Sequence record: MN850633.1
Length of the DNA: 64,000 nt
Origin: Escherichia phage allfine
Strand: one strand, 5' to 3'
This document shows positions 1,901 to 64,000 of this stretch, piece by piece. The notes below the pieces were generated by a model that was given only the letters and a program-made list of their open reading frames with translations, searched no databases and had not been told where the DNA came from. Made by a program: the position numbers and the translations under genes. Position 1 is the stretch's first letter. Every line of letters starts with the position of its first letter.

Positions 1901-1933
1901 TGTAAAATTCTCCAGAATGTCTTATTATTGTTA

Positions 1934-2311: not shown

Positions 2312-2322
2312 TATTGTGTTCC

Positions 2323-3669: not shown

Positions 3670-3680
3670 TTTTACTCACC

Positions 3681-4013: not shown

Positions 4014-4513
4014 TAATTAAACCTTACTTTTTGTTTAAGGACTGTTGAATGGTTACCAGATTCATCTACCACATTTACAATCATATCATATACTTTGCCT
4101 TTGACAAGTACTTTGTAATCATTTTGTGAAAAAATGTATTCAAGTCTGTTTGTTTCTTTATTAACCGTCATTGGAGATTGAAATGCAGTGTCGAGGGTAA
4201 TGAAAGCGGCTTCAATGCTATTAACATTGATACGTTTATTCTCGCAGTTATATAACTTTACACCCAAAAGGCATGAACTGTCAAATGGAATTTTAACAAT
4301 TTCACTACAATTTCCTGAAATAAACGGTTTTCCACTCATTGGTGCATCAAGTAACCTGCAAATAGTGAAAACGTCAGAGGTTCCACCATCACTTACATAA
4401 CCTGAAAGGCTGACCCTTGAGCCAGCCTCTACAGATAACTTGTCAGTAATGATAAGAACACCTCTATACGAATGCACTCGTGTAGCATTTGAAATAGAGA
4501 TAACTTCAGCCAT
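4013..4513 (-). CDS. hypothetical protein (166 aa)
   Basis: ORF between portal and protease genes. Confidence 0.45.
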   Translation of the reverse strand: MAEVISISNATRVHSYRGVLIITDKLSVEAGSRVSLSGYVSDGGTSDVFTICRLLDAPMSGKPFISGNCSEIVKIPFDSSCLLGVKLYNCENKRINVNSIEAAFITLDTAFQSPMTVNKETNRLEYIFSQNDYKVLVKGKVYDMIVNVVDESGNHSTVLKQKVRFN

Positions 4514-5988
4514 TATTTATTTGCCTTATTTGCTGTGCTTGGGTCTTTCGCTGAAGGTGTCTTTGCAGTACCTTCTCCAGCGGTCTTATAACCATCTCCT
4601 GAACGGCTTTGGCTATTCGGAGAAAGCTTTTCAGATACTGGTTGAGACTCATCAGCAGGAGGAAGACCAATATGCTCTCTAAGCTTGTTAGATAGCTCTT
4701 TGTCAACTTCCAAAGCACCTACTGCAACGGTCTTCTGAATATAAGAACCAATTGCTTCAAGGTCTGGAGTTTCGATATCATCATAAGTGATTTGTACATG
4801 TTCTTCATCGTCCCACATATTAAGAGCATAAGTCTGTGCAACTAAATCACGGTTAATTACGTTCTTAATTTGCTTCAGCAGAATATCTACTGACATTGCT
4901 AGTAAGCTTGTCTTAGAATCTGCAAGAGAGAATGAACCATATTTTGACTGACCCATAGCAAGAACATCTGACATAAATGCCATCATAATCTGCTTGGAAT
5001 ATCTGTCAATAATAGAACCTGTATCGTATGCTTTAGCACCCTGTCTAGAAACTAATGAGAACTCAAAAATATCCTCTTTAGTATCTGGGTCGATATATCT
5101 AGGCCAGATTAAACCTGCTCTGTCGTTAGCAATCATATCATTAACAACAGTTTTGCAGTATTGTACGAAAGCTTTCTTTTCAGGTTCTGCATTTTCATCC
5201 AGATAGTCTGGTGGTAAACCAATCTTTGGCATACCTACCAAGTCTCTTGAAACACCAACAGCTTCATACTCTTCAATCTGTACTTTATACTTCCACGGTA
5301 CATAAGCGTTAAGTAATGGTGAACGACCTTCTGGGTTACCATACTCATCATCATACTTAAACAGCATGAATTTAGCTCGTGGAAGTTTTCTTGTTAGTGG
5401 TCTTTCTCCAAGATTAATTGCTCCAGCAATATGTGAAACATTTCTCAGATTCTGTCTAACACCAGTAACTTTTCTAAAGTCTTCGTCAAAATACCACTTA
5501 TCAAGTGTTGATTGGTTTCTGATTGGTAATTTAGCCCACCCAATTAGACCATCATCAAATTTTGACTGGTACTTTCCTTTTTTACCCTGACGTTTCTTAT
5601 AAACCTTTTCGTTAACACAGAACCCATAAGTGCAGAATGACATTACAGAGTTAATAAAATCTGCCCAATCATGCTCCATGTCATCCATTAAAGAATTAAA
5701 GAAGTCTGCTCTTTCAAGCATTTTAGGGTCTTGCTCTTTTCCCTTTGGAGGTACGAATCTCCAGTTGACTTTTCTGACAAACATCTTAATAATATTTACA
5801 GATGCTGCTACAGCAGGGTCACGCATCATTAATTGGAAAGTTTTAATACTTTCAGGGAACCTTAGTGCCTGACGAGGTTCTTCATAGATTCTTCCATTCT
5901 TAACCTTCAGACCCAAAGAACCTACTTCACCCATTCTAAATGGTGGTAAGCTTTCTTGTGTTTCTGTAATATCTGCCATTCTTCTCAC
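4513..5988 (-). CDS. putative portal protein (491 aa)
   Basis: Large ORF immediately downstream of large terminase on same strand; size typical of portal; no motif verification. Confidence 0.6.
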   Translation of the reverse strand: MRRMADITETQESLPPFRMGEVGSLGLKVKNGRIYEEPRQALRFPESIKTFQLMMRDPAVAASVNIIKMFVRKVNWRFVPPKGKEQDPKMLERADFFNSLMDDMEHDWADFINSVMSFCTYGFCVNEKVYKKRQGKKGKYQSKFDDGLIGWAKLPIRNQSTLDKWYFDEDFRKVTGVRQNLRNVSHIAGAINLGERPLTRKLPRAKFMLFKYDDEYGNPEGRSPLLNAYVPWKYKVQIEEYEAVGVSRDLVGMPKIGLPPDYLDENAEPEKKAFVQYCKTVVNDMIANDRAGLIWPRYIDPDTKEDIFEFSLVSRQGAKAYDTGSIIDRYSKQIMMAFMSDVLAMGQSKYGSFSLADSKTSLLAMSVDILLKQIKNVINRDLVAQTYALNMWDDEEHVQITYDDIETPDLEAIGSYIQKTVAVGALEVDKELSNKLREHIGLPPADESQPVSEKLSPNSQSRSGDGYKTAGEGTAKTPSAKDPSTANKANK

Positions 5989-8041: not shown

Positions 8042-8117
8042 TGGAGAATCCGAAGGGACTCGAACCCTTATAAACCTGTTTTGCAGACAGGCACATAGCC
8101 ATTTCTGTCACGGATTC
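8042..8117 (-). tRNA. tRNA-Cys (GCA)
   Basis: Hand fold: acceptor GAAUCCG/CGGAUUC, anticodon stem CCUGU/ACAGG with loop CUGCAAA, T-loop UUCGAGU, encoded CCA. Confidence 0.7.
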
Positions 8118-8121
8118 AAAT

Positions 8122-8214
8122 TGGAGGAAGATACCAGACTTGAACTGGTACACCGATTTCTCAGCTACTGGCAGTTTAGCAAACTGCTCCCTTACCTTTT
8201 AGGGTTAATCTTCC
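8122..8214 (-). tRNA. tRNA-Ser (GCU), type II with long variable arm
   Basis: Acceptor GGAAGAU/AUCUUCC, anticodon loop UUGCUAA, T-arm ACCAG-UUCAAGU-CUGGU, 93 nt. Confidence 0.6.
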
Positions 8215-8215
8215 A

Positions 8216-8950
8216 TTATTTCTGTAATGCGCTCTTCATTTCTGGTGTTGCAATAGTGTCAATTACACCAGTTTTACAGGCATCATCAAACCAGTCTGGT
8301 AAGATACCTGCTAAGAACCCATTGATATTCGTTTTAAGGTACTCTGCAATAAGGGCAGCTTCTTCTTCAATCATCTGCACAACTTCATCTGCATAAGCTG
8401 TAATCTTTGAGATACCTTCATTAATCTTACTGACAGCTTGGTTAGCTAAATCAGAAACAGTATCAAGACCCTTGTCAATAGCGTCTTGTAAGTCACTTAA
8501 TACATCGTTAACACTCTCTAGTGTACTGTTAATCGTATCAATAGCTTTTTGACCATATTCTGTAGCAACACCCATAATACCACTGAACGGTGTACAACCA
8601 ACTTGTTCTCCTGCTGCACCCATAACATTGGAATATCCCTTTGCTACCTGCATACGTGATGAAAACTCATCAATAGACTTTTGACCGTAGTCTGTTAGGG
8701 TCTTAGTAGTTGCTGTAGTGCTTGTAAGGCTTGTTGTAAAGCTGTTTAGAAGGACTGTTGTAAGTCCAGCAGCAACAAGTTTCTCCTGCATTGTAGGGTC
8801 TGTTACAGAACTAATAGAGCTTACAAGTGATGTAGAAGCAGCTACGGTTCCACCGAGAACTGCTGCACCAGTAATAAGTGGGTTAGAAAACCCTTTACCG
8901 GTTTTTAAGAGATTAAAAATCTCCTTACCTTGTTCTGTCATCTCTTTCAT
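8216..8950 (-). CDS. hypothetical Ser/Thr-rich protein (about 244 aa from internal Met)
   Basis: ORF 8216-9013 in track; upstream 60 nt overlaps a tRNA, so start placed at Met 22 (8950); embedded inside tRNA array. Confidence 0.45.
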   Translation of the reverse strand: MKEMTEQGKEIFNLLKTGKGFSNPLITGAAVLGGTVAASTSLVSSISSVTDPTMQEKLVAAGLTTVLLNSFTTSLTSTTATTKTLTDYGQKSIDEFSSRMQVAKGYSNVMGAAGEQVGCTPFSGIMGVATEYGQKAIDTINSTLESVNDVLSDLQDAIDKGLDTVSDLANQAVSKINEGISKITAYADEVVQMIEEEAALIAEYLKTNINGFLAGILPDWFDDACKTGVIDTIATPEMKSALQK

Positions 8951-8969
8951 TAAGCACCTTTGAAATTGG

Positions 8970-9043
8970 TAGTCCAGTGGGATTTGAACCCTCTTCTCAT
9001 GTTTTTCAGACACGCGCTTTAACCATATAAGCTACTTGGACTA
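8970..9043 (-). tRNA. tRNA-Phe (GAA), imperfect fold
   Basis: T-arm GAGGG-UUCAAAU-CCCAC, acceptor UAGUCCA/UGGACUA, anticodon stem CGUGU/ACAUG loop CUGAAAA; D-arm register ambiguous. Confidence 0.5.
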
Positions 9044-9048
9044 TAAAT

Positions 9049-9124
9049 TGGGGTGACCTACGGGATTTGAACCCGTATAGACCATGTTCACAGCATGGGT
9101 CATTACCATTTATGATAAGGCCAC
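9049..9124 (-). tRNA. tRNA-His (GUG)
   Basis: Acceptor GUGGCCU/AGGUCAC, D-stem UCAU/AUGA, anticodon stem CCAUG/CAUGG loop CUGUGAA, T-arm ACGGG-UUCAAAU-CCCGU, CCA encoded. Confidence 0.8.
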
Positions 9125-9155
9125 ATTTAAGGACTCTCGTAAGAATCCTTAGAAG

Positions 9156-9231
9156 TGGCAGCGGCATAAGGATTTGAACCTTAATAAGACAGCTTCAGAG
9201 ACTGCTGCATTGCCAGTTATGCTATACCGCT
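9156..9231 (-). tRNA. tRNA-Gln (CUG)
   Basis: Acceptor AGCGGUA/UGCCGCU, D-stem GCAU/AUGC, anticodon loop CUCUGAA, T-arm UAAGG-UUCAAAU-CCUUA. Confidence 0.7.
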
Positions 9232-9236
9232 AAATT

Positions 9237-9315
9237 TGGTACTCCATATCGGATTCGAACCGATACATAACACAGATTTTAAGTCTGGCCTCTCTGCCAA
9301 TTGGAGTAATGGAGC
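9237..9315 (-). tRNA. tRNA-Leu (UAA)?, Leu-like D-loop AAUUGGCAGAG but short variable region
   Basis: T-arm AUCGG-UUCGAAU-CCGAU, acceptor GCUCCAU/AUGGAGU, anticodon loop CUUAAAA; atypical for a type II tRNA. Confidence 0.45.
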
Positions 9316-9317
9316 AT

Positions 9318-9392
9318 TGGCGGGGGATGTTGGAATTGAACCAACTTCTTCGATTTCAAAGACCGAGGTTTTAACCTTGTAAACTAATCCCC
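9318..9392 (-). tRNA. tRNA-Gln (UUG)
   Basis: Anticodon stem UCGGU/AUCGA loop CUUUGAA, T-arm GUUGG-UUCAAUU-CCAAC; acceptor pairing imperfect. Confidence 0.55.
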
Positions 9393-9401
9393 TTTAAATC
9401 T

Positions 9402-9959
9402 TTACTTTCTCAGTGGATGAATAAAGAATGCCAACATAACTCTTTCCCTTGAGAATGCTCTTTCTTCTGGGACAACACTTTTTAGTTTCCATCCAATATA
9501 AATTCTCCAGTAAAATTGTTTACCAAAGATTTTAATTGATGGGATAAAAGCGAATAATCCCCAAGCATTCCTGTTCCACATTAGGAGATAACCAGTCTGA
9601 TTATCTTCAGGGTTAGAACTTACGTTGATATTACCTTTCCACTTAGTAACATCTTTTACATCTCTTCCTAACACATGGTAAGAGAAGTTATAAGCTTTGT
9701 TTCTCCAGAGCCATCCAACTCTTTGCATGTAGACACCTAGTTTACCAATCCATCTAATATTAGCCCATCTTTTAACGTGACCTTCATCACCATCAATTGG
9801 GTTGTCATAGGTCTCCATCCATCTGAATCCAAAAGGTAGATGTCCTTTCTTCTCACTGTAGAATGGAACTACAAAAGGTGCTAAGATAACTGCTAAGATT
9901 GCTGCAAATGGCTCTAACAAAGCTAAGAAAATCCATGAAGCATACTTCAAATATCTCAT
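9402..9959 (-). CDS. hypothetical membrane protein (185 aa)
   Basis: ORF with strongly hydrophobic N-terminus (two predicted TM helices), Trp-rich; embedded in tRNA array. Confidence 0.45.
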   Translation of the reverse strand: MRYLKYASWIFLALLEPFAAILAVILAPFVVPFYSEKKGHLPFGFRWMETYDNPIDGDEGHVKRWANIRWIGKLGVYMQRVGWLWRNKAYNFSYHVLGRDVKDVTKWKGNINVSSNPEDNQTGYLLMWNRNAWGLFAFIPSIKIFGKQFYWRIYIGWKLKSVVPEERAFSRERVMLAFFIHPLRK

Positions 9960-9978
9960 CTAAATAGCCTCTTTAAAT

Positions 9979-10054
9979 TGGCGCAGGATAAGGGATTCGA
10001 ACCCCTATTAACAGCTTCGTAGACTGTTGCTCTATCCATTTGAACTAATCCTGC
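9979..10054 (-). tRNA. tRNA-Arg (ACG)
   Basis: Acceptor GCAGGAU/AUCCUGC, D-stem GUUC/GAGC, anticodon stem ACAGU/GCUGU loop CUACGAA, T-arm AGGGG-UUCGAAU-CCCUU, CCA. Confidence 0.8.
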
Positions 10055-10059
10055 AAAAT

Positions 10060-10137
10060 TGGTGTTCCAAGACGGATTCGAACCGTCACTAGTACAAGGT
10101 TTGAGCTTGCATCCTCTGCCAATTGGGATACTGGAAC
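10060..10137 (-). tRNA. tRNA-Leu (CAA)?, Leu-like D-loop, short variable region
   Basis: Acceptor GUUCCAG/UUGGAAC, anticodon stem GCAAG/CUUGU loop CUCAAAC, T-arm GACGG-UUCGAAU-CCGUC. Confidence 0.5.
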
Positions 10138-10138
10138 A

Positions 10139-10213
10139 TGGTACTCACTAAAGGACTTGAACCTTTTTCTTCATCTTGTAAGGGTGATGTTTTACCATAT
10201 AAACTAAGCGAGT
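10139..10213 (-). tRNA. tRNA-Val (UAC)
   Basis: Acceptor ACUCGCU/AGUGAGU, D-stem GUUU/AAAC, anticodon loop CUUACAA, T-arm AAAGG-UUCAAGU-CCUUU. Confidence 0.65.
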
Positions 10214-10306
10214 ATGAAAGAGGTCTGGAGTTGTGCCGCTAACTCAACTCCGTGGAATTTGTTACGGTCTTCAGTTGACTCAAAGCGGTCTTTCACTTGA
10301 CCTCTG
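10214..10306. ncRNA. structured non-tRNA element inside tRNA array (candidate small RNA)
   Basis: Terminal 7-bp pairing AGAGGUC/GACCUCU enclosing hairpin GGAGUUG...CAACUCC; no T-arm consensus; fills gap between tRNA-Val and tRNA-Thr. Confidence 0.3.
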
Positions 10307-10309
10307 AAT

Positions 10310-10386
10310 TGGTGCTGCTCACAGGACTCGAACCTGCATTTCCATCCTTACAAGGGATGTGTAATAGCCAATTATACGAAAGCAGC
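10310..10386 (-). tRNA. tRNA-Thr (UGU)
   Basis: Acceptor GCUGCUU/GAGCAGC, anticodon stem CAUCC/GGAUG loop CUUGUAA, T-arm GCAGG-UUCGAGU-CCUGU. Confidence 0.8.
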
Positions 10387-10392
10387 ATTGTT

Positions 10393-10467
10393 TGGAGCAT
10401 CCAGAGGGAATCGAACCCTCAACCTCAGTTTGGAAGACTGTAATTTTCCCGTTTAAACTATGGATGC
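10393..10467 (-). tRNA. tRNA-Gly (UCC)
   Basis: Acceptor GCAUCCA/UGGAUGC, D-stem GUUU/AAAU, anticodon loop CUUCCAA, T-arm GAGGG-UUCGAUU-CCCUC. Confidence 0.75.
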
Positions 10468-10473
10468 ACTAAT

Positions 10474-10549
10474 TGGTGGAGAAGCAGGGAATTGAACCCT
10501 GTACTTAAGTTTGCAAAACTTATGTTTTAACCATGTAAACTACATCCCC
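10474..10549 (-). tRNA. tRNA-Ala (UGC)
   Basis: Anticodon stem UAAGU/ACUUA loop UUUGCAA; acceptor carries the G3-U70 wobble pair characteristic of tRNA-Ala; T-arm CAGGG-UUCAAUU-CCCUG. Confidence 0.8.
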
Positions 10550-10555
10550 ATTGTT

Positions 10556-10631
10556 TGGTACAGGTGGAGGGAATTGAACCCATCGTCTTACTGATTAAGA
10601 GTCAGCCGCATAACCATTTTGCTACACCTGC
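10556..10631 (-). tRNA. tRNA-Lys (CUU)
   Basis: Acceptor GCAGGUG/CACCUGU, anticodon stem GCUGA/UCAGU loop CUCUUAA; paralogous to the tRNA at 11790-11865. Confidence 0.6.
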
Positions 10632-10638
10632 ATTAATT

Positions 10639-10716
10639 TGGTAGGAGACAAGGGATTCGAACCCTCAAACATCTCGTTCTAAGCGAGATAGGTTTACCAA
10701 TTACCGTCAATCTCCC
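10639..10716 (-). tRNA. tRNA-Leu (UAG)?, atypical
   Basis: Acceptor GGGAGAU/GUCUCCU, anticodon stem UCUCG/CGAGA loop CUUAGAA, T-arm GAGGG-UUCGAAU-CCCUU; D-arm irregular. Confidence 0.5.
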
Positions 10717-10975
10717 ATTAAATCTTTTTAGAGAACTTCTAAGAACCTAAGCAACAAGGTTCCACAACAAGCTGTAATAACCTTAGAAGCCCTCTAAAAA
10801 GACCTAAAAAGGTCTTTGCATAGTCTTGTTTAATCCGGTGACTAGAACCTTTGGAGAGCTTGATATTATCTCTTCTCCGTGACACCTACTAGGTGCTTTA
10901 CTGTGCGTGTACGACAATACACTAGGGATACCAAAGCAACATCCGAATGAAGCTTGGCTTTAAATCTTATTAGGC

Positions 10976-11061
10976 GGTAAGTAAAGGAGTCGAACCCTCA
11001 CCGTATCTCTACAGTGGCAACTGTTTTCAAGACAGTTTGGCTACCATTAGCCGCTACCTAC
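10976..11061 (-). tRNA. tRNA-Ser (UGA), type II
   Basis: Anticodon stem ACUGU/ACAGU loop CUUGAAA, long variable arm, acceptor GUAGGUA/UACUUAC; boundaries approximate. Confidence 0.6.
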
Positions 11062-11075
11062 CCCTAATAAGACTT

Positions 11076-11158
11076 TGGCATGGGACGGAGGAGTTGAACC
11101 ACTTTGAAACGGTTTTGGAGGCCGTTGCTCATGCCTTAGAGTCTTAACATCGTCCCAC
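11076..11158 (-). tRNA. tRNA-like, possible tRNA-Trp (CCA), atypical 5-prime half
   Basis: Acceptor GUGGGAC/GUCCCAU with encoded CCA, anticodon-like arm ACGGC-CUCCAAA-ACCGU, about 7 extra nt in D region. Confidence 0.4.
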
Positions 11159-11301
11159 ACTATAATTCGAAGCTTACCGTATTTTCACAACACTGTAAAG
11201 CCCCTTCTCAGATTATTTACATGTTCTGGAAAACATGAGATACAGACCACCTCCTTACACGGAGACCCGATAAGGTCGTCTAAGTAATCTGCTAACTAAA
11301 T

Positions 11302-11383
11302 TGGTCGAGGCGGCAGGACTCGAACCCGCATACTCCACTTACTCGGTTAACGGCGGTTTAGAAGACCGCTGAGATACGCCCCG
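11302..11383 (-). tRNA. tRNA-like, possible tRNA-Arg (UCU), lacks canonical D-arm
   Basis: Good T-arm GCGGG-UUCGAGU-CCUGC and acceptor CGGGGCG/CGCCUCG plus CCA; anticodon arm GCGGU-CUUCUAA-ACCGC directly after acceptor; 23-nt extra segment. Confidence 0.4.
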
Positions 11384-11631
11384 TAATTATCTTTAAAGAC
11401 TCTCTTAGAAAGCCCTTAAAGATGCCCACCTTATTAATCATACCGTGGGCTAGTACGCCAAATTCTTTGATGAGGGATTGGAAGACCTCACTGGTGTTTA
11501 GCCTATCAAGCTACTGCCAGAAAAACATTGTCGTTTGCATTTATTTTAAATTTGCAAAATAGACGCTACGCAACGAAAACTAAGGTTACTATAAAGTAGT
11601 CACATCTCAATGTCAACAACTTTATTGAAAT

Positions 11632-11707
11632 TGGTACTGGTAGGTGGAATCGAACCACCGATGTTCCCTTATCAGGGGAGTGTTATAACCTTCTTAACTA
11701 TACCAGC
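11632..11707 (-). tRNA. tRNA-Ile (GAU)
   Basis: Acceptor GCUGGUA/UACCAGU, D-stem GUUA/UAAC, anticodon loop CUGAUAA, T-arm GGUGG-UUCGAUU-CCACC. Confidence 0.75.
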
Positions 11708-11708
11708 T

Positions 11709-11785
11709 TGGAGGTTCAGATGGGAATCGAACCCACATTCATAGGGCTTATGAGACCCTTGCATTACCTTATCTGCGACTGAACC
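11709..11785 (-). tRNA. tRNA-Met (CAU), elongator-type acceptor
   Basis: Acceptor GGUUCAG/CUGAACC, anticodon stem AGGGU/GCCCU loop CUCAUAA, T-arm GUGGG-UUCGAUU-CCCAU. Confidence 0.75.
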
Positions 11786-11789
11786 ATAT

Positions 11790-11865
11790 TGGTAGAAGTG
11801 GAGGGATTCGAACCCATCGCCTGTCAGATTAAAAGTCTGCCGCATAACCATTTTGCTACACTTCC
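11790..11865 (-). tRNA. tRNA-Lys (UUU)
   Basis: Acceptor GGAAGUG/CACUUCU, anticodon loop CUUUUAA, D region identical to tRNA-Lys(CUU) paralog. Confidence 0.65.
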
Positions 11866-12122
11866 ATTAAATTACCTTTGTAGATAAGCTACCCAGACTT
11901 GCTTAAGGTCTGTAGCGATGTGCCTTGTTGGGTTTAAATCTAGAATTTACCCTTTCACCCTTTGTGGTCGCATACTCACAGGTAAGCTTAATAACTTATC
12001 TACAAAGATAATTACCAGACCGTTGTTTATCATCTTAAGTGCTACCATTACACCAACTCGACATCTGCCGAGTGAAGGAATCGAACCTTCGCCTTTTCTT
12101 TACCGGAGAAATAGATTGTTTA

Positions 12123-12152
12123 AGTTTTGCTGTAAACGGTCTTCTGTAAATT
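12123..12152. repeat. repeat motif TTGCTGTAA-N2-GGTCTTCTGTAAA, copy 1 of 4 in tRNA array
   Basis: Near-identical copies at about 12205-12232, 12596-12629 and 12763-12790; CCAGACC partner forms long-range inverted repeat with GGTCTTCTG. Confidence 0.5.
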
Positions 12153-12204
12153 TGTTGAGCCAGACCAAGTTTTAAATTTTCAAAATTAAATTGGCTTGAA
12201 ATTT

Positions 12205-12232
12205 CATACATTCTTGCTGTATTTGGTCTTCT
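12205..12232. repeat. repeat motif copy 2 (TTGCTGTATTTGGTCTTCTG)
   Basis: Shares core with copies at 12123, 12596, 12763; upstream partner CCAGACCAAG at about 12163. Confidence 0.45.
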
Positions 12233-12294
12233 GCTCCTTTAAAGAATACTCGTAAGAACTCTTTAAGGGAGGGGCTAAATAGCCCTCTCAAAAT

Positions 12295-12371
12295 TGGCGG
12301 CTACGATGAGACTTGAACTCACATCATCTCCCGTGACAGGGGAGTATTTTCTCCAGTTAAACTACATAGCC
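12295..12371 (-). tRNA. tRNA-Asp (GUC)
   Basis: Acceptor GGCUAUG/CGUAGCC, anticodon stem CUCCC/GGGAG loop CUGUCAC, T-arm GUGAG-UUCAAGU-CUCAU, CCA encoded. Confidence 0.85.
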
Positions 12372-12376
12372 TTTAT

Positions 12377-12464
12377 TGGTGTGCCGTGTAGGAGTCGAAC
12401 CTACCGAGTCTCAATGACAAGGGATTTACAGTCCCCACCGCTACCATCTACGGGATAACGACAC
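12377..12464 (-). tRNA. tRNA-Tyr (GUA), type II
   Basis: Acceptor GUGUCGU/ACGGCAC, anticodon stem GGGGA/UCCCU loop CUGUAAA, long variable arm, T-arm GUAGG-UUCGACU-CCUAC. Confidence 0.75.
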
Positions 12465-12476
12465 ATTTAAATTTTG

Positions 12477-12550
12477 CGGTTAGTCAGGGATTCGAACCCT
12501 GTGCCATTCGCTTAACAGGCGACCGCACATACCTTATGTGCTTCCTAACC
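12477..12550 (-). tRNA. tRNA-Asn (GUU)
   Basis: D-stem GCAC/GUGC, anticodon loop CUGUUAA, T-arm CAGGG-UUCGAAU-CCCUG; CCA not encoded. Confidence 0.75.
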
Positions 12551-12595
12551 TTAATACATTGCCAGACCGTGTTTTTCTTTTATCCGCAAAAAGTA

Positions 12596-12629
12596 GTTTG
12601 TTGCTGAATACGGTCTTCTGTAAATTTGG
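12596..12629. repeat. repeat motif copy 3 (TTGTTGCTGAATACGGTCTTCTGTAAATTTGG) with upstream CCAGACCG partner at about 12571
   Basis: Same core as 12123 and 12763 copies. Confidence 0.5.
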
Positions 12630-12703
12630 AGGCGGGTGCAGGAGTCGAACCTGCCGATACCATGCTAATGAGACATGTGAGACGCCCTTTCTCTATACCC
12701 GCA
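12627..12703 (-). tRNA. tRNA-Met or Ile2 (CAU)
   Basis: Anticodon stem CAUGU/GCAUG loop CUCAUUA, D-stem GAGA/UCUC, T-arm GCAGG-UUCGACU-CCUGC; position 1-72 mismatch in one register. Confidence 0.6.
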
Positions 12704-12762
12704 ATTCTTAATGACCAGACCAAATATCTTCTTTGTCCGATTTCGTGTCAGATGAGTAGATT

Positions 12763-12790
12763 AAGTTTGCTGTAATTGGTCTTCTGTCAA
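12763..12790. repeat. repeat motif copy 4 (TTGCTGTAATTGGTCTTCTGTCAAAA) with upstream CCAGACCAA partner at about 12714
   Basis: Same core as other copies; on minus strand reads TTGACAGAAGACC. Confidence 0.5.
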
Positions 12791-12793
12791 AAC

Positions 12794-12871
12794 TGGCGTT
12801 CCAGAAGGGATTTGAACCCTCAAATATCCACTTTGAAAGAGTGGTGACTTTACCATTTTGTCTACTGGAAC
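12794..12871 (-). tRNA. tRNA-Glu (UUC)
   Basis: Acceptor GUUCCAG/CUGGAAC, anticodon stem CCACU/AGUGG loop CUUUCAA, T-arm GAGGG-UUCAAAU-CCCUU, CCA. Confidence 0.8.
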
Positions 12872-12878
12872 ATTAATT

Positions 12879-12955
12879 TGGTCTCTGTTGGAGGACTTGA
12901 ACCTCCGGCCTTACCGCCCCAAACGGAACGCTCTACCAAGCTGAGCTAAACAGAG
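12879..12955 (-). tRNA. tRNA-Pro (UGG)
   Basis: Acceptor CUCUGUU/AACAGAG with C1-G72 typical of bacterial tRNA-Pro, D-stem GCUC/GAGC, anticodon loop UUUGGGG, T-arm GGAGG-UUCAAGU-CCUCC. Confidence 0.8.
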
Positions 12956-44185: not shown

Positions 44186-45133
44186 TTACATAGAGACTCT
44201 ATCACGAATCTCAGCGATTTTTGCATCATTCATTCGAGACTGACCTTTAATTTTTGTGAATGACAAGTACCCGCACACCCTGTTAATCACAGAAATATCA
44301 TGTGAATGACAAACCTCACATTCTTCAACATCAGCCTTTGGTCTGTCACCACAATGTTCACAGATTGCTAAGTCAAAGTTAAGTCCCTGATAGAAACCTT
44401 TCAACATCCCTCTTGTAATACAACTCTTAAGTGCTGATAAGTTTTCTGGATTAGCTACCCTTACATACTGGATTCTGCCGCCTCTACAGATATGGAAGAA
44501 GGGTTCTTCTAAGTCCTGCTTCTCAAATGGTGTAATATCTGCTGCAACATTCATATGGAAACTATTTGTAAAGTATTCTTTATCAGAAACACCTTTGATA
44601 ACGCCAAACATATCTCTGAACTGTTTTAACTGAGTTCCACAAAGTGATTCTGCTGGAGTGCCATATACCGCATACAAGAAGCCATCTTCGTTCTTAAACT
44701 CTTCAGTTTTCATGTTAATGTATGCCAGAACATCGTATGTAAAACTACAGCTTCCAACTTCATGAAGCCGTTTACCTTCAGCAAGAACAGATAGCTCATC
44801 AAGCGCAGTAACCCCAAAAGAAGCTGTGAAGGACTTCACAATATCCCAACCAACCTTGTCAGTAGGCTTCTTAGTTCCTTTGTACAGACCACCTTGTGTA
44901 AATGCAAGAGGGTTAGAACTTGCTGGCATATTGGCAATCATTTCATAGCGTTTCTTGTGGAAACTACGAATCATCTCTAGGTACTTATCAAGCTCTTTCC
45001 AGAAATCTAAACCATTCTCTTTAGAATACTGGTAAATCATTGGTAAGTTCAAAGATACAGCACCAATGTTAGCACGACCAACATAGAACTCTTCCCCATT
45101 ATCGTTAAGATATGGTGATAAGAACGCTCTACA
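44186..45133 (-). CDS. nrdD: anaerobic ribonucleoside-triphosphate reductase, exon 2 (C-terminal part)
   Basis: Begins CRAFLSPYL directly after predicted 3-prime splice site; C-terminal CEHCG...CEVC zinc site and glycyl-radical motif RVCGYL. Confidence 0.8.
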   Translation of the reverse strand, partial: CRAFLSPYLNDNGEEFYVGRANIGAVSLNLPMIYQYSKENGLDFWKELDKYLEMIRSFHKKRYEMIANMPASSNPLAFTQGGLYKGTKKPTDKVGWDIVKSFTASFGVTALDELSVLAEGKRLHEVGSCSFTYDVLAYINMKTEEFKNEDGFLYAVYGTPAESLCGTQLKQFRDMFGVIKGVSDKEYFTNSFHMNVAADITPFEKQDLEEPFFHICRGGRIQYVRVANPENLSALKSCITRGMLKGFYQGLNFDLAICEHCGDRPKADVEECEVCHSHDISVINRVCGYLSFTKIKGQSRMNDAKIAEIRDRVSM

Positions 45134-45875
45134 CTTGTTGTTCAGGTAAGTTCGCTAAGCTTACCCCGCTTTATTCAAGCTGCTTACTGTCGCCAGTAAG
45201 TCCAGACTATATCTTCTACTTATTTCTAAGTAGCGTACCATTTCGAGTCGCTTGACCCTACACCGCTACATTCATCACGGTTAGTCGTTCGGCATTTAGA
45301 TGTATTCAAACTCATATTCGAAGTTATTATGCTCTTTTACACCCTTCAATATTGAAGAGATGGTCTTGCGATTGTGTCCAAGTATATTGGATAACTCTCG
45401 TATTGACTTAGTAACAATAACTTCCTTTGTCACTTTGTGTGTGGCTTTCACGGCATATGAACGCTTGTGGAACTTGTAACATCCGTTCTCATAACCCTCT
45501 TTAGCATTCTCAGAATGAGTACCCCATTCTAAGTTAGATGCGTGGTTATTTAGTTTGTTATCGTCCTTATGTTTTACAATTGGAAGATTATTCGGGTTAG
45601 GTACATATTTCTCAGCAACTAACCTGTGGACATACATGTCACGATTCTTCTTACCGTAAAACCTCACTTTCATATACCCAGTGTTGGATTTCCACTGCGT
45701 AAGCTCTACACCATTTTCCCTAAAGACTTTTCCATCTTCAGTGACGTGATAGTTTGGCATGTAAGACTCCTATGTTGTATAGTTTCTTACATCGTACATC
45801 ATTTAGCACAGGATTGTCTACATCTGTAGAGTTTCCCTGTTTAGGCACGTTTTAGATGAGCTATAGAGCTTGTTA
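45134..45875 (-). mobile_element. putative group I intron in nrdD carrying HNH homing endonuclease ORF
   Basis: Exon 1 ends ...ISPMG then stop; exon 2 resumes CRAFLS in frame, reconstituting conserved PMGCR motif; upstream exon ends in U, intron ends in G; P7-like pairing CGACUAA / UAUAGUC. Confidence 0.65.
45296..45760 (-). CDS. HNH homing endonuclease (intron-encoded, 154 aa)
   Basis: HNH core HRLVAEKYVPNPNNLPIVKHKDDNKLNNHASNLEWGTHSEN; own AGGAG RBS. Confidence 0.8.
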   Translation of the reverse strand: MPNYHVTEDGKVFRENGVELTQWKSNTGYMKVRFYGKKNRDMYVHRLVAEKYVPNPNNLPIVKHKDDNKLNNHASNLEWGTHSENAKEGYENGCYKFHKRSYAVKATHKVTKEVIVTKSIRELSNILGHNRKTISSILKGVKEHNNFEYEFEYI

Positions 45876-47072
45876 ACCCATCGGTGAAATTACCTTGCCA
45901 GAACGCTCAAAAGCTTCTGCTACAGCACCATGACCAGATACACTTAAGAAATCTGGATACATTGCTTTAGAGCAGCACTCAATAGCTTTACTGTACAGGT
46001 GGCCTTGACAGATATTCTCATTATGTCTCTTCTGGTCATAAATATAAACCAGTTTAGGGAATACAACAGGCTTCTTGCTCTTACCTTGTCCATTCATACG
46101 AACATCTAGGAGAGTACTTGCAATTATATATTGCAGTCGGTTATCTTCATTGGACATATCTGAGTCAAGTAACCCGAATGTCAAAGTTGTGAATGCAAAA
46201 TCCCCACGACTACAAGGTACAGTATTTAGTTTCATTTCAAGTGACTGGAAACCTTGAGTTAGCTCAATCTGTAGCTGCTCCATGACATAATTGTGGTAAT
46301 GCTCTTTAGGAATACCATAAGATGCTGCTTTCTCAGCATGATAGCGTAGAGACTTCTTAGCATACGGTACAAGTACCTTATCAATCTCTGCTAAAGTAAA
46401 GCCACCAAATTGCTGTGCAGTTGCTGAAAGAACTACATCGCCAATAACCTGTAATGCTGACAGTACAGACTTCGGTTCACAATATTCAATGCCAGACATT
46501 TCAAAGCCACCTTTCAGCACTTTACCAATGTCAAACAGGCAACAGTTGATACCACCAAAAATTAGGTCTCTTAAATCATGGATATAGATAAACCCTTTTT
46601 CAATGGCTTCAAGTTCCTCTGGTGTTAAATGGTACTGCTTAAAGATTTCTTTAGTCAGGTAACCACGAATAATTGAACCTTTTGTAGAAATTAAACTGCT
46701 GTCAAAGTTAGCATTCTCCCTGTCACCTAAGAAGAGTGTATCTTTGGTCTTCTGGTAAAGTTCATCCCAATTTTGAGCAACCTCTTTACGGTAATTTCTA
46801 TATGTTGAGTAAGACTCATAAATCTCGTGATTGACTTCTGCCAAAGCACCCTCAACAATACTGTGAATATCATTTACAGAAATTAGCAAATTATTCTGTT
46901 TAGTAGATTTTACCAGAATCCTCATAAATGCTGACTCAAGAGCTTGGGTAACATCTGGTGGGAGTTCTTTATATCCAACCCTATTAGCTGACTTTGTGAC
47001 TGCTGCTAAAACTTTTTTGATATCAGGTTCTTCGAGTGAGCCATTCTTTTTAATAATCTGTACTTTGTTCAT
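45876..47072 (-). CDS. nrdD: anaerobic ribonucleoside-triphosphate reductase, exon 1 (N-terminal part)
   Basis: N-terminal ATP-cone-like start MNKVQIIKKNGSLEEPDIKKV; ends SPMG at predicted 5-prime splice site. Confidence 0.8.
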
Positions 47073-59586: not shown

Positions 59587-60009
59587 TTATTTCTCTCTCA
59601 GTTGGTTAAGTTTCTTTCTAGAACATTTTAAGTTTTCGGATGAAGAAAAGTCAAGTGTCTTTTCAGAACGTGGATAATAGTGTCTATCCCAAGAAGTTTC
59701 AACATCGTTAATCAGTGACGCTAGATTACACAGGTCTGTACCACTTTGCAACCTCTTTTTAAGAGAATCTAGTAAAGCAACTGTGTCTTTAGCTTTACGT
59801 CTTGCTGTAGCAACATCTTTCATATGCTCAAATACAGAGCATTTTAAGTCATCTTCATAGTTTTCAGACAACTCTATTTCATGTTGTATATCAACCATTC
59901 TCCTGTGATGGTGAGCATATTCCCGTTGAGCAGCAATGTCAAGTTCTTCCAACTTCTGCAAAGCTCTAACAAAGTCAGCTATGTCTGGGTGAACAAACAT
60001 TTTCTGCAT
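59587..60009 (-). CDS. hypothetical protein (140 aa)
   Basis: First ORF of minus-strand unit next to divergent region. Confidence 0.5.
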   Translation of the reverse strand: MQKMFVHPDIADFVRALQKLEELDIAAQREYAHHHRRMVDIQHEIELSENYEDDLKCSVFEHMKDVATARRKAKDTVALLDSLKKRLQSGTDLCNLASLINDVETSWDRHYYPRSEKTLDFSSSENLKCSRKKLNQLREK

Positions 60010-60185
60010 GTAAGCCTCTTTTAAGTAACTATTAAGTTTTAATCTTTTATCTTAACGTATTCTATACGTTATACTTTAAAGCTTTTTAAAAGCTATTAAA
60101 TAATCTTTTAAGAGTTTTAAAGTATCTGTATAGTTAAACTGTTAAGTAACCTTTTAAGTAAAAACCCACTTCGCAAAGATTAACA

Positions 60186-60207
60186 CCTTGTCAAGTACAT
60201 TGTCAAC
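60186..60207. promoter_or_regulatory. conserved 22-bp motif CCTTGTCAAGTACATTGTCAAC in divergent region upstream of DNA polymerase
   Basis: 21 of 22 identical to motif at 15117-15138; surrounded by repeated CTTTTAAG motifs in AT-rich 258-bp spacer. Confidence 0.45.
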
Positions 60208-60267
60208 TTGCTTTTTATAATTTTTTGCAGTAATGTATGAGGTTAATGGTTTTAGAGGGAGTAAAAA

Positions 60268-62410
60268 ATGGAAAACGTAGATTTTAAAAACTTACATTTG
60301 GTTGGTGATACAGAGACTGATGGTTTACTCCTTGAGTTCACTAAAGTTCACGTAATGGCTTTTGCAGACTATAAATCTGACGATGAAGAGCCTCCTGTAT
60401 GGGTCTTTACAGATGAGCCTATCCTCGGTCACAAGTACACTAAGTACATCAAGGGTGGTTTACGTGAAGGTGTTGAATTTGTGTTAAAGGCAAAACGTCT
60501 TTGCATCCATAATGGTCTCGGTTATGACTGGTGGGTTTTCAATCACATTGCACCTGATTTATGGAACTTTGATAATCCAAAATGTAAGCCGTGGAGTAAT
60601 TTCTTTCAGGATTCTCTTATCCAGTCTCGTGTTCAGTGGATGGATAGACCAACTCCAAAGGGTTATAAAGGTGCTCATGGCTTGGCTGCATGGGGTGCTC
60701 GTGTTGGTGTCCGTAAACCAGAGATTGAGCATTGGGGTGTGTGGAATGCAGAAATCTTCACTCGTGTTGTAGAAGATATCCGTATTAACGCCAAAACTAA
60801 ACGGGCACTTGATAACGAGTATCTCAAGCTTAAGAAGTGTGGCATAGACACTTATGAAACCTACATGCGAGCTAAAGAAACATCTTTCTGGATGAGTCAA
60901 CAAGCTATCAATGGTTGGAAAGCTGATAAAGAGCTTATGGAGTTCCATGTAAAGGAACTTGACAAGTTGACTAATGAGCTTGCTTCAGAGGTTGAACCAC
61001 ATCTACCTCCAACTATTAAGACCAAAGGTAAAGTCACTGGAGAAGAGTTTGCAAAAGCTTGGAATGAGTATGTTGAAGCATTTGGTCATGCAGATGGACT
61101 GAAAAGAATTACCAAGTACCCTAAGACAAAGTATCGTCAGCAGGTACGTAATGGTGAGATGCAGACATACGAAATCAAACCATTTGGTAAGCCAACTACA
61201 AAGATTTTTAACATTGAAAAGAGAAATTGCTATACACCAACCAACTCTGTAACTGGTGAAGAGTACAAGGAAGGCTTTGTAGCAATGAAGGATGCTCGTG
61301 CAATTTGCAATGAGTTGAATGCAAAGATTGGTAAGAAATGCAAAGACTGGAAGCCAGTAAAAACAGTCAAAACTGTGAAGTACTATAACAGCCACGTTGT
61401 TAACCACTTTGAACTTGAGTCAAGTCGCTACACAGGTTTGATTGATGCACCATATACACCAATTGAGTTTGAAGTTTCTCGTATGACTCAGGTAGCAGTT
61501 GTTAAAGACTACTTGAAATCAGTTGGTTGGATTCCAGATGACTGGAACTACAAGAAAGACTCAGACGGTCGCCCTGTAAAAGTTTGTCGTTTCAAAGACA
61601 ATAAAAAGATGATTACAAAACATCCTAAGTGGCAGGAAATGGTTGAGCGGTGTGGTTTGAGTTATGTTGAACATGAAGGTGTGCAGTACATTGAGCATAA
61701 CTGGTCCGTGAAGAAATACACAGACTTGCTTGAGCCTTGCTTAATCCGTACTTCACCAAAACTTACTGAATCATCTTATGATACGATTGAAGGTGAACTT
61801 GGACAGAAGATTGCTAAGTACTATACTTTGATGCACAGACGCAGAACTATTGAGAACTCAAAGGATGATGAAAAAGGTTGGTTGAACCAGATTCGTCCTG
61901 ATGGTCGCCTTAGTGCTGGTGCGATGGTGTTCGGTACTTCAACTGGACGTATGACACAATATGGTATTGTAAACGTACCGTCTGGTGCTGCTGTCTATGG
62001 AGCACCTATGAGGGAGGTGTGGATTTGTGAAGAGGGGACTAACATTGTTTCTGTTGACCAGAACTCAGCTCAGCTTGTTTTACTGTGTAACTTTATGGGT
62101 GATAAAGATTTCACCAAAGCGGTAACTGAAGGTAAAGAGTTTGTAGAGTTCACTAAACAGGATGATGGACGATACTACTGCAAGCATCTTGATAAGTACC
62201 TAAATCCAGAGGCTGATAAATATTGTCGTTACGATGCTGATAACGATTTGTATGAAGTCTATACAGGTACTGATGCGCATACACTTAACAGTATCTATTT
62301 TGCATTGAACAAAGAAGAAGATATTATCCGTTGTAGAGAGACACAGGATGAGGAACTTCTTCACGAGATAACTAAAGGCCGTAAGAAGGCTAAGAATGGT
62401 ATCTATGCGT
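60268..62410 (+). CDS. DNA polymerase, family A (Pol I/T7-like), exon 1
   Basis: Exo I motif DTETDG at N-terminus, motif A VDQNSAQL, O-helix start RKKAKNGIYA truncated at predicted splice site. Confidence 0.85.
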
Positions 62411-63215
62411 CAGTGGCGCATGTAAAACGTTGTGAATTGCTGGAAGCCTAAGTCTGTAAAGATATGGTAATCAGCAGCGAAGTCTCTGTTAGGACTCCTA
62501 TAGTAGAAATGGGAGAGAGACAATGGCAGGTTATAAAGAAAGAGTTTGTTCCAGATGTGGCGAAGAGTTTAAGCCATATCAGTACAATCAAAAACGTTGT
62601 AGAAACTGCGTTCTTGAAGTAGACAGAAGAGCAGCAAGTCGTGTCATAGAAAAGGTATGTCCAAGCTGCAATAACCAATTCACACCTAGAACAGCAAGAC
62701 AGACATATTGCAGTTCTACATGTGGAGAAAAGGGAAGGGTAAAGAACTACTACTTAAGGACTTACGGCCTAGAAAGAGAAGAGGTTGAAGAGTTGTTAAG
62801 TAAATGTGGCCATAAGTGCCAAATCTGTGGCGGTGAAGGTTTCATCATGAATGGCTCAAGACATAAAGCTAAACTTGTTGTTGACCATGACCACAAAACA
62901 GGTAAGGTGAGAGGGATGTTGTGCCACAACTGTAACAGAGGTCTTGGCTTGTTCTCAGACAGTGTAGATAATATGCAGAGAGCAATTGCATACCTTAGTA
63001 AACAATAGTATTTTAGAGTTCCTAACAGAGAAACGTTCAGAGACTATCGAAAAGCATACTTAATGTGTGAACTGAGTAGAGTAGGATGGTAAGCTAATGA
63101 CCATTCCCAAGTGCAACGGTAGTATTACTACTACGTGATATAGTCCGACACTCCGTAGAAATGCGGAGAAGTTCATAAGAGAACTGGTACACCTTGCGAG
63201 TGTATTGACCAGATG
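62411..63215 (+). mobile_element. putative group I intron in DNA polymerase gene carrying endonuclease VII-type HNH ORF
   Basis: Splicing 62410 to 63216 gives in-frame ...KNGIYALLFGAGDEK..., matching T7 O-helix IYGFLYGAGDEK; exon ends in U, intron ends in G; P7-like pairing AGACUAU / AUAUAGUCC. Confidence 0.65.
62523..63008 (+). CDS. HNH endonuclease, endonuclease VII-type (intron-encoded, 161 aa)
   Basis: Multiple CxxC zinc knuckles plus LVVDHDHKTGKVRGMLCHNCNRGLG His-Me finger motif; own RBS. Confidence 0.8.
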   Translation: MAGYKERVCSRCGEEFKPYQYNQKRCRNCVLEVDRRAASRVIEKVCPSCNNQFTPRTARQTYCSSTCGEKGRVKNYYLRTYGLEREEVEELLSKCGHKCQICGGEGFIMNGSRHKAKLVVDHDHKTGKVRGMLCHNCNRGLGLFSDSVDNMQRAIAYLSKQ

Positions 63216-63772
63216 TATTGTTCGGTGCAGGTGATGAGAAGTTTGCCAAAACCATTAAGGCAGCTTCTACAGAGGAAGGTGCATTGACTAAGCAGACCTA
63301 CTATATGCGTCTACCAAAGATTAAGAAGCTACTTGACAGGTTAGAGGAAGACTTCAAAGCAACTAAGAAGGCACTTGAAGAGGTTTTTGGAAAAACTTCT
63401 GCAATTGCCAAAGGTGGTTATATCAAAGTCGCTGGAGCGTGGTTATGGTGTAAATCTCCACATAAGTTATTGAATTTCACACTCATGGGTAGTGAGGCGC
63501 AGGTTCAGAATGAAGCAATCAACCTTGCTTGCAGAAGAATGATTGATGAAGGTTTGATGAAGTTGAACGGTCGTAAACCAGCTATAGGTGCTCGTTTATT
63601 GTGCTCCTATCACGACGAGACGAGTTGGGAATGCCCAGAAAGTATGACGGCAGAAGTGAAAGCAGTTACTGACTGGTATTATGGACAAGCTTCTAAGAAC
63701 TTAGGTCTTAAGAAAGAAACACTTGTTACAGGTACTGGTAAGGTTGGTAAATCGTGGTATGAGGTACACTAA
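63216..63772 (+). CDS. DNA polymerase, family A, exon 2 (C-terminal part)
   Basis: Begins (L)LFGAGDEK completing O-helix; contains motif C LCSYHDE. Confidence 0.8.
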
Positions 63773-63828
63773 TTAGTATTGACAAGGTGCTCAGGGAAGA
63801 GTACCTTATACTATATCTTGTATAGGAG

Positions 63829-64000
63829 GACTTATGAGCCACCGTGGAAGAACCCATGCAGCAATGATGAAAGGTGCTTCAAAGGAAACTATCAAGAATC
63901 GTAAACAGAAGTTGTTTGAGAGAATGAACAGGTTAATTGAAAATTCATCTCTTTCAGGTTCTGAAAAGGTTTTCTTGAAAGGTAATCTGAAAAGTATTGC
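63829..64000 (+). CDS. hypothetical protein, partial (runs off window end)
   Basis: ATG at 63829 preceded by AGGAGGA RBS; N-terminus MSHRGRTHAAMMKGASKETIKNRKQKL; open to window end. Confidence 0.45.

Follow-up and report, generated by a model that had tools for sequence, protein, structure and literature searches.

What interrupts the DNA polymerase gene of this phage, and how could one complete enzyme still be made from it? In the window, i.e. the whole 64,000-nucleotide stretch that was analysed, an insert of 805 nt at 62411-63215 (plus strand) splits a gene for a family A DNA polymerase. The polymerase region (60268-63772; 3.5 kb) is 97% identical over its full length to those of Salmonella phages SP4, SEP1 and SP2 and of Escherichia phage JLBYU32, and has matches in about 260 records from Felix O1-like myophages (Felixounavirus, Ounavirinae). 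By these matches the phage is assignable to Felixounavirus. The insert is, with a probability of about 0.93, a mobile group I intron of subgroup IA, a type often met in phages, residing in a Felix O1-like family A polymerase gene, and its splicing and homing are what we infer from the evidence below. The main features are:

60268..62410, plus strand: exon 1 of the DNA polymerase (family A), placed by the ORF list, Pfam DNA_pol_A, the in-frame join and the T7 alignment
62411..63215, plus strand: predicted group I intron, 805 nt, IA-type (P7.1/P7.2 present, no P2), with an ORF in the P6 loop
62523..63008, plus strand: intron ORF of 161 aa, placed by Pfam, PHROG, PDB and motif positions
63216..63772, plus strand: exon 2 of the DNA polymerase, placed by Pfam DNA_pol_A (positions 218-380), the in-frame join and the T7 alignment

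Joining of 60268-62410 to 63216-63772 yields 2700 nt, a single open frame without internal stop that encodes 899 aa and contains KGRKKAKNGIYALLFGAGDEKFAK. The joined exon DNA is ...TATGCGT/TATTGTTC, the predicted junction-spanning peptide is IYALLFGAGDEK, and the frame reads ...AKNGIYA/LLFGAGDEK across the junction. The boundaries, with T at position 62410 and G at position 63215, are precise. Read from the sequence, a shift of +1 or -1 base gives A-V-L or A-S-L and the conserved A-L-L is lost. The coordinates, the junction peptide and the in-frame join claimed by the sequence-only reading stand. Without splicing, the frame meets a stop (TAA 62449-62451) after 14 codons of the insert.

The interrupted position is a conserved catalytic element of the enzyme. 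In a phmmer comparison with the PDB, the window's GRKKAKNGIYALLFGAGDEK is aligned with TRDNAKTFIYGFLYGAGDEK of T7 DNA polymerase. The junction peptide aligns with the T7 O-helix (RDNAKTFIYGFLYGAGDEK), with T7 R518-K522-Y526...GAGDEK matched, and the motif B pattern R-x3-K-x3-[YF]-x3-[YF]-G is found, aligned to T7 R518/K522/Y526/Y530. The last base of exon 1, U62410, is the first base of the Leu codon aligned with T7 F528. The junction is thus placed between the residues aligned to T7 G527 and F528, within the O-helix and between two conserved aromatics, in agreement with the motif B location first suggested for it. The equivalent of T7 F528 is about L764 of E. coli Pol I. Motif A lies in exon 1, whereas exon 2 carries the remainder of motif B as well as motif C (...SYHDE...). 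From established family A enzymology, neither half alone could be active. Since motifs A and C are separated in this way and the early stop in the insert closes the unspliced frame, splicing would be obligatory.

The RNA helices of the insert were assigned from Rfam alignments of ORF-less copies found in relatives, together with inspection:

62404..62422, plus strand: P1 hairpin, placed by the Rfam alignment of the identical sequence in ORF-less relatives and by the unconstrained minimum free energy (MFE) fold
62404-62411 (exon UAUGCGU and intron C) with 62415-62422 (internal guide GGCGCAUG), plus strand: the P1 strands, 8 bp
P2: absent
62428-62434 (CGUUGUG) with 63112-63118, plus strand: P3, 7/7 pairs compensatory among relatives
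62438..62476, plus strand: P4-P5-P5a domain, placed by Rfam hit, helix assignment, covariation and MFE fold
62438-43 with 62471-76, plus strand: P4
62447-48 with 62466-67, plus strand: P5
62452-55 with 62460-63, plus strand: P5a, GUAA loop
62477-78 (GC) with 63035-36 (GU), plus strand: P6
62483-62494 (UCUCUGUUAGGA) with 63020-63031 (UCCUAACAGAGA), plus strand: P6a, 12 bp, an exact 12-nt complement that encloses the ORF
63042-63047 (GACUAU) with 63140-63145 (AUAGUC), plus strand: P7, the predicted guanosine-binding helix, forming a pseudoknot with P3
63055-63069, plus strand: P7.1, 5/5 pairs compensatory
63084-63106, plus strand: P7.2, 7/7 pairs compensatory
63119-63134, plus strand: P8 hairpin, placed by helix assignment and covariation
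63151-63168, plus strand: P9 hairpin, GAAA loop
63171-63184 (GUUCAUAAGAGAAC), plus strand: P9.1, a sequence common to the polymerase introns of a T7-like Yersinia phage and of Bas89
63185-63211, plus strand: P9.2, placed by the MFE fold
63215, plus strand: terminal guanosine (ωG)

The GACUAU/AUAGUC pairing, which had been noticed as P7-like from the letters, therefore has a definite place in this structure. At the 5' splice site, P1 contains the wobble U62410•G62416, and the last base of the intron is G63215 (ωG). The unconstrained MFE fold of the ORF-less intron recovers P1, P3, P4, P5, P5a, P7.1, P7.2, P8, P9, P9.1 and P9.2; its z-score is weak (-1.54) and the fold was used just for this recovery of helices. 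A P10 pairing was sought between the P1 loop (CAGUG) and the start of exon 2 (UAUUG), which are not complementary, and none was convincing. Many phage introns have a weak P10 or none, and its lack therefore does not exclude group I membership.

Subgroup IA is the usual type of phage group I intron. P7.1 and P7.2 would assign the window intron to this subgroup as a whole (IA1, IA2 and IA3 together). In subgroup IA2, these two extra helices lie between P7 and P3' and are linked by G-U-A (as quoted in PMC3428280). Both helices and such a linker (...GAGUAGAGUA) are present in the window. The G+C content of the intron (0.414) matches that of the exons (0.41-0.42); its composition thus gives no hint of a recent arrival from a foreign source. 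A scan of 60000-64000 for sigma-70 promoters and terminators returned fewer sites than shuffled sequence and nothing useful inside the intron.

The Rfam scores must be read with the position of the ORF in mind. At the gathering threshold, a scan of the whole window returned 24 tRNAs only and no intron. These tRNA genes, at 8045-12955 on the minus strand, fit the Felix O1-like group, Felix O1 itself containing 22 (PMC3185647). Against the group I family RF00028, whose gathering score is 50 bits, the window intron gives two sub-threshold hits of 22.9 bits (P4-P6) and 17.3 bits (P7-P9), because the core is divided by the ORF in P6. Copies at this site that lack the ORF, on the other hand, score 64.3, 61.7 and 62.9 bits (E-values 6e-15 to 4e-14), and the window core is about 95% identical to theirs. 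Between the window and the ORF-less form, P6a carries a compensatory change from C-G to U-A; P8 carries U-A versus C-G between the window and the phages BPSELC-1 and pSJ21.

The structure is also conserved among more distant relatives. A core covariance model (R1) was built from three Felixounavirus cores with the hand-checked structure, since MAFFT misaligned the intron of phage ZQ2 through P7.1-P8, and relatives were aligned to it by Infernal. For this purpose, 103 IMG/VR stretches sharing the 18-mer TTCAGAGACTATCGAAAA were fetched and 118 R1 matches were aligned; the window copy itself scores 160.4 and 69.1 bits. In the 118 relatives, 92.5% of the cells form standard pairs, a percentage inflated by the fitting of the alignment to the model structure, compared with 61.7% in shuffled controls and 32-44% when the partners are slid by 1-3 columns. 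Compensatory changes on both sides occur in 49 of the 56 pairs, and the covariation score is 0.401 (0.10 in shuffles, no more than 0.066 with slid partners). Both the slid controls and the number of pair types speak for a real covariation signal. P7 is near-invariant: it has no compensatory change and 84% of its cells are paired, with four of its six pairs varying on one side only and two departing only via unpaired cells, as expected for the catalytic centre. The group I assignment proposed by the sequence-only reading is upheld by the Rfam matches of the ORF-less homologs, the P1 U•G, the terminal G, this covariation and the intron-less alleles described below.

The relatives of the core interrupt an N4-like RNA polymerase gene, crAss-like family B polymerase genes and terminase-like and capsid-like genes, which makes the core part of a broad family of phage introns. 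A second intron, in the nrdD gene of the same window, had been pointed out earlier and is confirmed: RF00028 matches with 33.1 bits at 45183-45363 (minus strand), and an HNH_3 ORF lies between two NRDD halves. The R1 search detected neither this intron nor that of the T7-like Yersinia phage; both are different sublineages and not copies of the polymerase intron.

The ORF inside P6 is preceded by a candidate ribosome-binding site (purine-rich GGGAGAGAG), which ends 4 nt before the ATG. Residues 79-159 of its product match Pfam Endonuclease_7 (PF02945; E=8.7e-20, 70.9 bits, cut-off 23.6). The product also matches phrog_307 (endonuclease VII; 3.4e-43), more weakly phrog_1271 ('HNH endonuclease'; 6.8e-16) and, in the PDB, the restriction enzyme Hpy99I (2.2e-7) and T4 Endo VII (0.013). 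All Endo VII motif residues are present (C99/C102, D121-H122-D123-H124, R130, C134/C137 and N138), in the order CX2-4C...D-H-(D)-H...R...CX2C-N. The N-terminal part contains two zinc-finger-like CX2C...CX2-3C repeats (C9/C12/C26/C29 and C46/C49/C63/C67), which probably serve for DNA binding. This predicted layout of a C-terminal motif and a separate N-terminal DNA-binding part is that of the endonuclease clade and not of the resolvases. The Pfam scan returned only Endonuclease_7, and none of the classical HNH families at E<=0.01. The label 'endonuclease VII-type HNH' first given to the ORF is therefore right in its Endo VII part and needs one refinement, the product not being a classical HNH enzyme. 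The predicted product is a ββα-Me nuclease of the Endo VII or 'DHHRN' type, the latter being a family proposed by Fang et al. (PMC6083498). By its motifs it shares the ββα-Me superfamily with the HNH enzymes, from which it would differ at the level of family.

These parts suggest the following course of events. The polymerase would be transcribed as one pre-mRNA, in which the intron RNA folds into P1-P9 with P7.1 and P7.2. Attack by guanosine followed by exon ligation is the established chemistry of group I introns. An external guanosine bound in P7 would attack the bond after U62410, held in P1 by its wobble with G62416. Subsequently, the freed exon 1 would attack after G63215, the exons would be ligated and the O-helix would read ...AKNGIYALLFGAGDEK. 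In a mixed infection, the 161-aa protein, with two zinc fingers and an Endo VII-type nuclease, would, by analogy with characterised relatives, nick or cut intron-less alleles close to where the intron is inserted. With the intron-bearing genome as template for repair, the intron and adjoining exon sequence would then be copied into the recipient (homing).

Relatives of the phage contain the site in several states. Empty sites were sought with the joined exon flanks as query, a comparison that had been proposed from the start. In Felix O1, P219 and many other relatives, the polymerase gene is uninterrupted and the identical peptide NGIYALLFGAGDEK runs across the site. The uninterrupted sequence in Felix O1 and P219 is AAT GGC ATC TAC GCC CTG TTA TTT GGA GCC GGA GAC GAG AAG (ATCTACGCCCTGTTATTTGGAGCC being the Felix O1 allele), and 9 of these 14 codons have a synonymous change in the window. 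According to its genome paper, Felix O1 has no introns (PMC3185647), consistent with its empty polymerase site. BPSELC-1 and pSJ21 contain an insert of 268 nt at exactly the same nucleotide, collinear with both ends of the 805-nt insert and without the ORF. EC106 has a 311-nt form, in which the long stem that closes the ORF is kept and encloses a 31-nt remnant. In total, the intron is present in about 96 of the approximately 260 related phage records, and the ORF in about 40 of those (25 by megablast; 39 at >=80% protein identity). The existence of empty and ORF-less sites, like the anatomy and conservation of the element, is directly observed. A chance resemblance is excluded by the intron-less alleles and the ORF-less versions at the same nucleotide position.

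The exons around the site differ in their similarity to Felix O1. The identity is 95-100% from -1440 to -480, and only in the segment from -420 to +120 does it drop, from about 97% to 75-90%. Homing with co-conversion of the flanking exons produces such a local drop in exon identity, and the segment resembles a co-conversion tract. This tract and the patchy distribution of the intron would point to the 'active homing-element traffic' of the sequence-only reading. Taken with the decay of the ORF in some relatives, they fit a cycle of homing-element invasion, ORF decay and loss.

The strongest competing explanation accepts an intron that is real and spliced, and regards it as a relic now inherited vertically, whose endonuclease no longer drives homing here or has another role such as aiding splicing. 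The ORF has been lost in over half of the intron-bearing genomes (the 268-nt and 311-nt forms), and in VpaE1 it matches in two pieces, which suggests decay. The intron-less alleles, with their differences at 9 of 14 codons, may not be cleavable. Moreover, the joined-flank search found no intron-less allele with flanks identical to those of an intron-bearing one; the best uninterrupted match is 87% over the 600-nt joined flanks, so that a cognate homing target is not documented. On the other hand, the window ORF is full length, retains every catalytic and zinc-binding residue and is 98% identical to the ORFs of FSL SP-010/107, and the local drop in exon identity is the product expected of recent homing with co-conversion. 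On balance, a relic of this kind is unlikely, and an intron that is still mobile remains the preferred reading.

Far less probable is an arrangement without any splicing, in which the polymerase gene has been divided by a free-standing endonuclease gene and the enzyme is reassembled from two polypeptides, like the mobE-split nrdA of Aeromonas phage Aeh1. This is what the GenBank records depict with two 'DNA polymerase' CDSs, the second starting at TTG 63218, and one functional precedent is attributed to Friedrich et al. 2007, as cited in PMC8351571. The ORF of the window, however, is surrounded by a complete group I core, and in relatives ORF-less copies of 268 nt interrupt the gene at the same base. 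The interruption cuts through a codon halfway along the O-helix; at the junction, exon 2 lacks a start codon, and no ribosome-binding site is recognisable before TTG 63218. In addition, the P1 U•G and the terminal G stand at precisely those boundaries whose joining gives back the conserved peptide. Another intervening element, for which nothing speaks beyond the interruption of the gene, can be dismissed: an intein, as the insert is out of frame and has numerous stops (such as 62449-62451), with the ORF in a different frame; a group II intron, as Rfam has no group II family at E<=10 over the region; and a transposon or insertion sequence, as Pfam finds neither transposase nor reverse transcriptase and terminal repeats are not needed for the boundaries.

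A mobile group I intron calls for a different annotation of the locus: one spliced polymerase gene with a homing endonuclease, as opposed to the two 'DNA polymerase' genes and the unrelated 'endonuclease VII' of most GenBank records. Felix O1-like phages are used in the biocontrol of Salmonella and E. coli. The misannotation affects gene counts, core-gene phylogenies and the safety dossiers of these phages. The site also displays an intron life cycle within a single genus, in four states: empty, intron with ORF, ORF remnant and minimal ORF-less intron.

The element of the window is one more copy of an intron already recorded in deposited genomes and in one-line bioinformatic remarks. The deposited Felixounavirus EC6, FSL SP-010/012/107, SP4, SEP1, JLBYU32 and VpaE1 contain it at the same insertion site, with the region 88-97% identical (95% over the whole region for EC6 and FSL SP-010). 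In the records of this genus the ORF is annotated as 'endonuclease VII', and the ORF-less intron is found in Meda, BPSELC-1, pSJ21 and SPJ41. Fang et al. 2018 described the Endo VII-motif ORFs of EC6, FSL SP-010, JH2 and 2 JES-2013 as intron-encoded (PMC6083498), and the genome announcement of Meda mentions an HNH-less (i.e. ORF-less) intron in the polymerase gene (PMC6486253). No secondary structure, splice-site mapping, transcript data or splicing assay for the Felixounavirus polymerase intron was found in the literature searched.

Among introns of other phages, those of family A polymerase genes are the closest in setting. A 2012 study places introns with endonucleases at E. coli Pol I positions 674, 676 and 881 (PMC3428280), whereas the window site is at about 764, in motif B. 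The self-splicing IA2 introns of SPO1, SP82 and Bastille (I-HmuI, I-HmuII and I-BasI), Pf-WMP3 (I-PfoP3I), ΦI and W31 (I-TslI) and phiL7 have the subgroup IA architecture with P7.1/P7.2, like that of the window. ΦI, W31 and Pf-WMP3 have their ORF in P6a, and Pf-WMP3 lacks P2, as in the window; insertion in a conserved catalytic region of the polymerase is likewise common to the window and the SPO1-type introns (PMC3428280). On the other hand, the SPO1-type nucleases are classical HNH enzymes and that of the window is of the Endo VII type. Splicing and cleavage have been demonstrated experimentally for the SPO1-type introns, whereas those of the window intron are predicted. The window site adds a fourth polymerase insertion site to this series and reveals no new mechanism.

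Other likenesses concern the nuclease and the RNA core separately. F-CphI of cyanophage S-PM2, the founding DHHRN member, has the same CX2C...DHDH...R...CX2C-N at the C-terminus of a small phage protein (PMC6083498). F-CphI is free-standing beside an intron-containing psbA ('collaborative homing'), whereas the window ORF lies inside its intron. The core fold recurs at other sites in ZQ2 (N4-like RNA polymerase), in crAss-like family B polymerases and in IMG/VR terminase- and capsid-like genes, with long stretches (GAAUUGCUGGAA, UUCAGAGACUAUCGAAAA and GAUAUAGUCCGA) identical between the window core and these other-gene cores. The ZQ2 intron scores 91.8 bits with RF00028 and 124.7 bits with R1; its endonuclease ORF is located downstream of P9, in contrast with the P6 location in the window.

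The nearest insertions lie in the same helix. The intron of a T7-like Yersinia phage (OR671244, locus L112), likewise group I and in the O-helix of a family A polymerase, is inserted 11 nt upstream of the window site, by reading of the sequence after the second base of the T7 F524 codon. Its ORF is 49% identical over 117 aa to that of the window (one zinc finger and the nuclease domain), the window having an extra N-terminal zinc-finger repeat. Endo VII-motif endonucleases have also been noted in the polymerase introns of the T7-like Yersinia phages Berlin and YpP-G (Fang et al., PMC6083498). In Bas89 (PQ850613), another polymerase intron is found 6 nt downstream of the window site, and the P9.1 sequence AGUUCAUAAGAGAAC is common to the window, T7-like Yersinia and Bas89 introns. 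Consequently, three O-helix insertion points lie within 17 nt (T7-like Yersinia, Felixounavirus at +11 nt and Bas89 at a further +6 nt), and two of these three introns carry homologous Endo VII-type endonucleases (49% identity). It is tentatively proposed, with the balance slightly against it, that this segment is an intron hotspot, along which one intron and endonuclease lineage has been retargeted in small steps within one catalytic helix. If true, the O-helix introns would form a natural series for how homing endonucleases shift their specificity.

The polymerase intron is found in shorter forms in relatives, in which it lacks the ORF:
L001 1801-2068 and L002 1801-2068 (polymerase loci of two relatives), ORF-less intron, 268-nt minimal form
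L005 1201-1511 (polymerase locus of a third relative), ORF-less intron, 311-nt form

In the 268-nt minimal intron, P6a is a short hairpin (CCUC-UUNA-GAGG). The 311-nt intron retains a 12-bp P6a stem enclosing a 31-nt remnant, on which GenBank carries a spurious annotation of a 44-aa 'hypothetical protein'. The intron ORF of phage VpaE1 (KM657822 / NC_027337) is matched as two pieces, annotated as 'hypothetical protein' and 'endonuclease VII', which suggests that its endonuclease gene is frameshifted and decaying.

Over the final ~250 nt of the polymerase gene (window 63520-63772), identity to Felix O1 and P219 is only 45-75%, whereas it is 90-98% in the sequence immediately upstream. In these two phages the end of the polymerase gene is overlapped by a free-standing HNH endonuclease gene. 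Downstream of the polymerase the window carries a different ORF, which starts at 63834 and extends past the window end; Pfam gives no match to the first 55 aa of its product. A second mosaic boundary, again associated with an endonuclease, may lie here.

The interruption of nrdD is the first intron of the sequence-only reading:
45873-47072 and 44186-45052, minus strand, the two NRDD halves of the split nrdD
~45053-45875, minus strand, nrdD interruption (the gap separating the halves)
45296-45760, minus strand, HNH_3 ORF of 154 aa between the halves
45183-45363, minus strand, sub-threshold RF00028 (group I intron) match of 33.1 bits between the halves

The frame of nrdD exon 1 ends in ...SPMG followed immediately by a TAA stop. 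The endonucleases of the nrdD and polymerase introns belong to separate families, and the search of the window with the polymerase-intron model did not pick up the nrdD intron. The window also contains a tRNA gene cluster, typical of Felix O1-like phages:
8045-12955, minus strand, 24 tRNA genes (Rfam RF00005, 31.7-62.7 bits)

Related intron cores occur in other viruses. Some uncultured viral contigs (L110, at 1344-4791; also L035, L023, L020 and L022) hold four to six intron-core-model matches clustered within 1-3.5 kb, which suggests that their genes are interrupted by several related introns consecutively. Introns also lie in phage genes:
L006 460-1408, N4-like phage ZQ2, RF00028 match of 91.8 bits
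L112 2320-2999, Yersinia T7-like phage OR671244, group I intron in the O-helix segment of the family A polymerase
L008 2458-3237, phage Bas89, group I intron in the O-helix segment of the family A polymerase

The ZQ2 core is the nearest outside Felixounavirus (72% identity); its host gene is an RNA polymerase, interrupted directly past ...TVHD, and its HNH ORF is located downstream of P9, not in P6. The OR671244 and Bas89 splice points were inferred from the U•G and terminal-G rules and from the restored TFIYGFLYGAG and IYAFNYGAGDAK. These introns lie in the same O-helix segment as the Felixounavirus site, 11 nt upstream of it in OR671244 and 6 nt downstream in Bas89, and the three insertion sites therefore fall within 17 nt.
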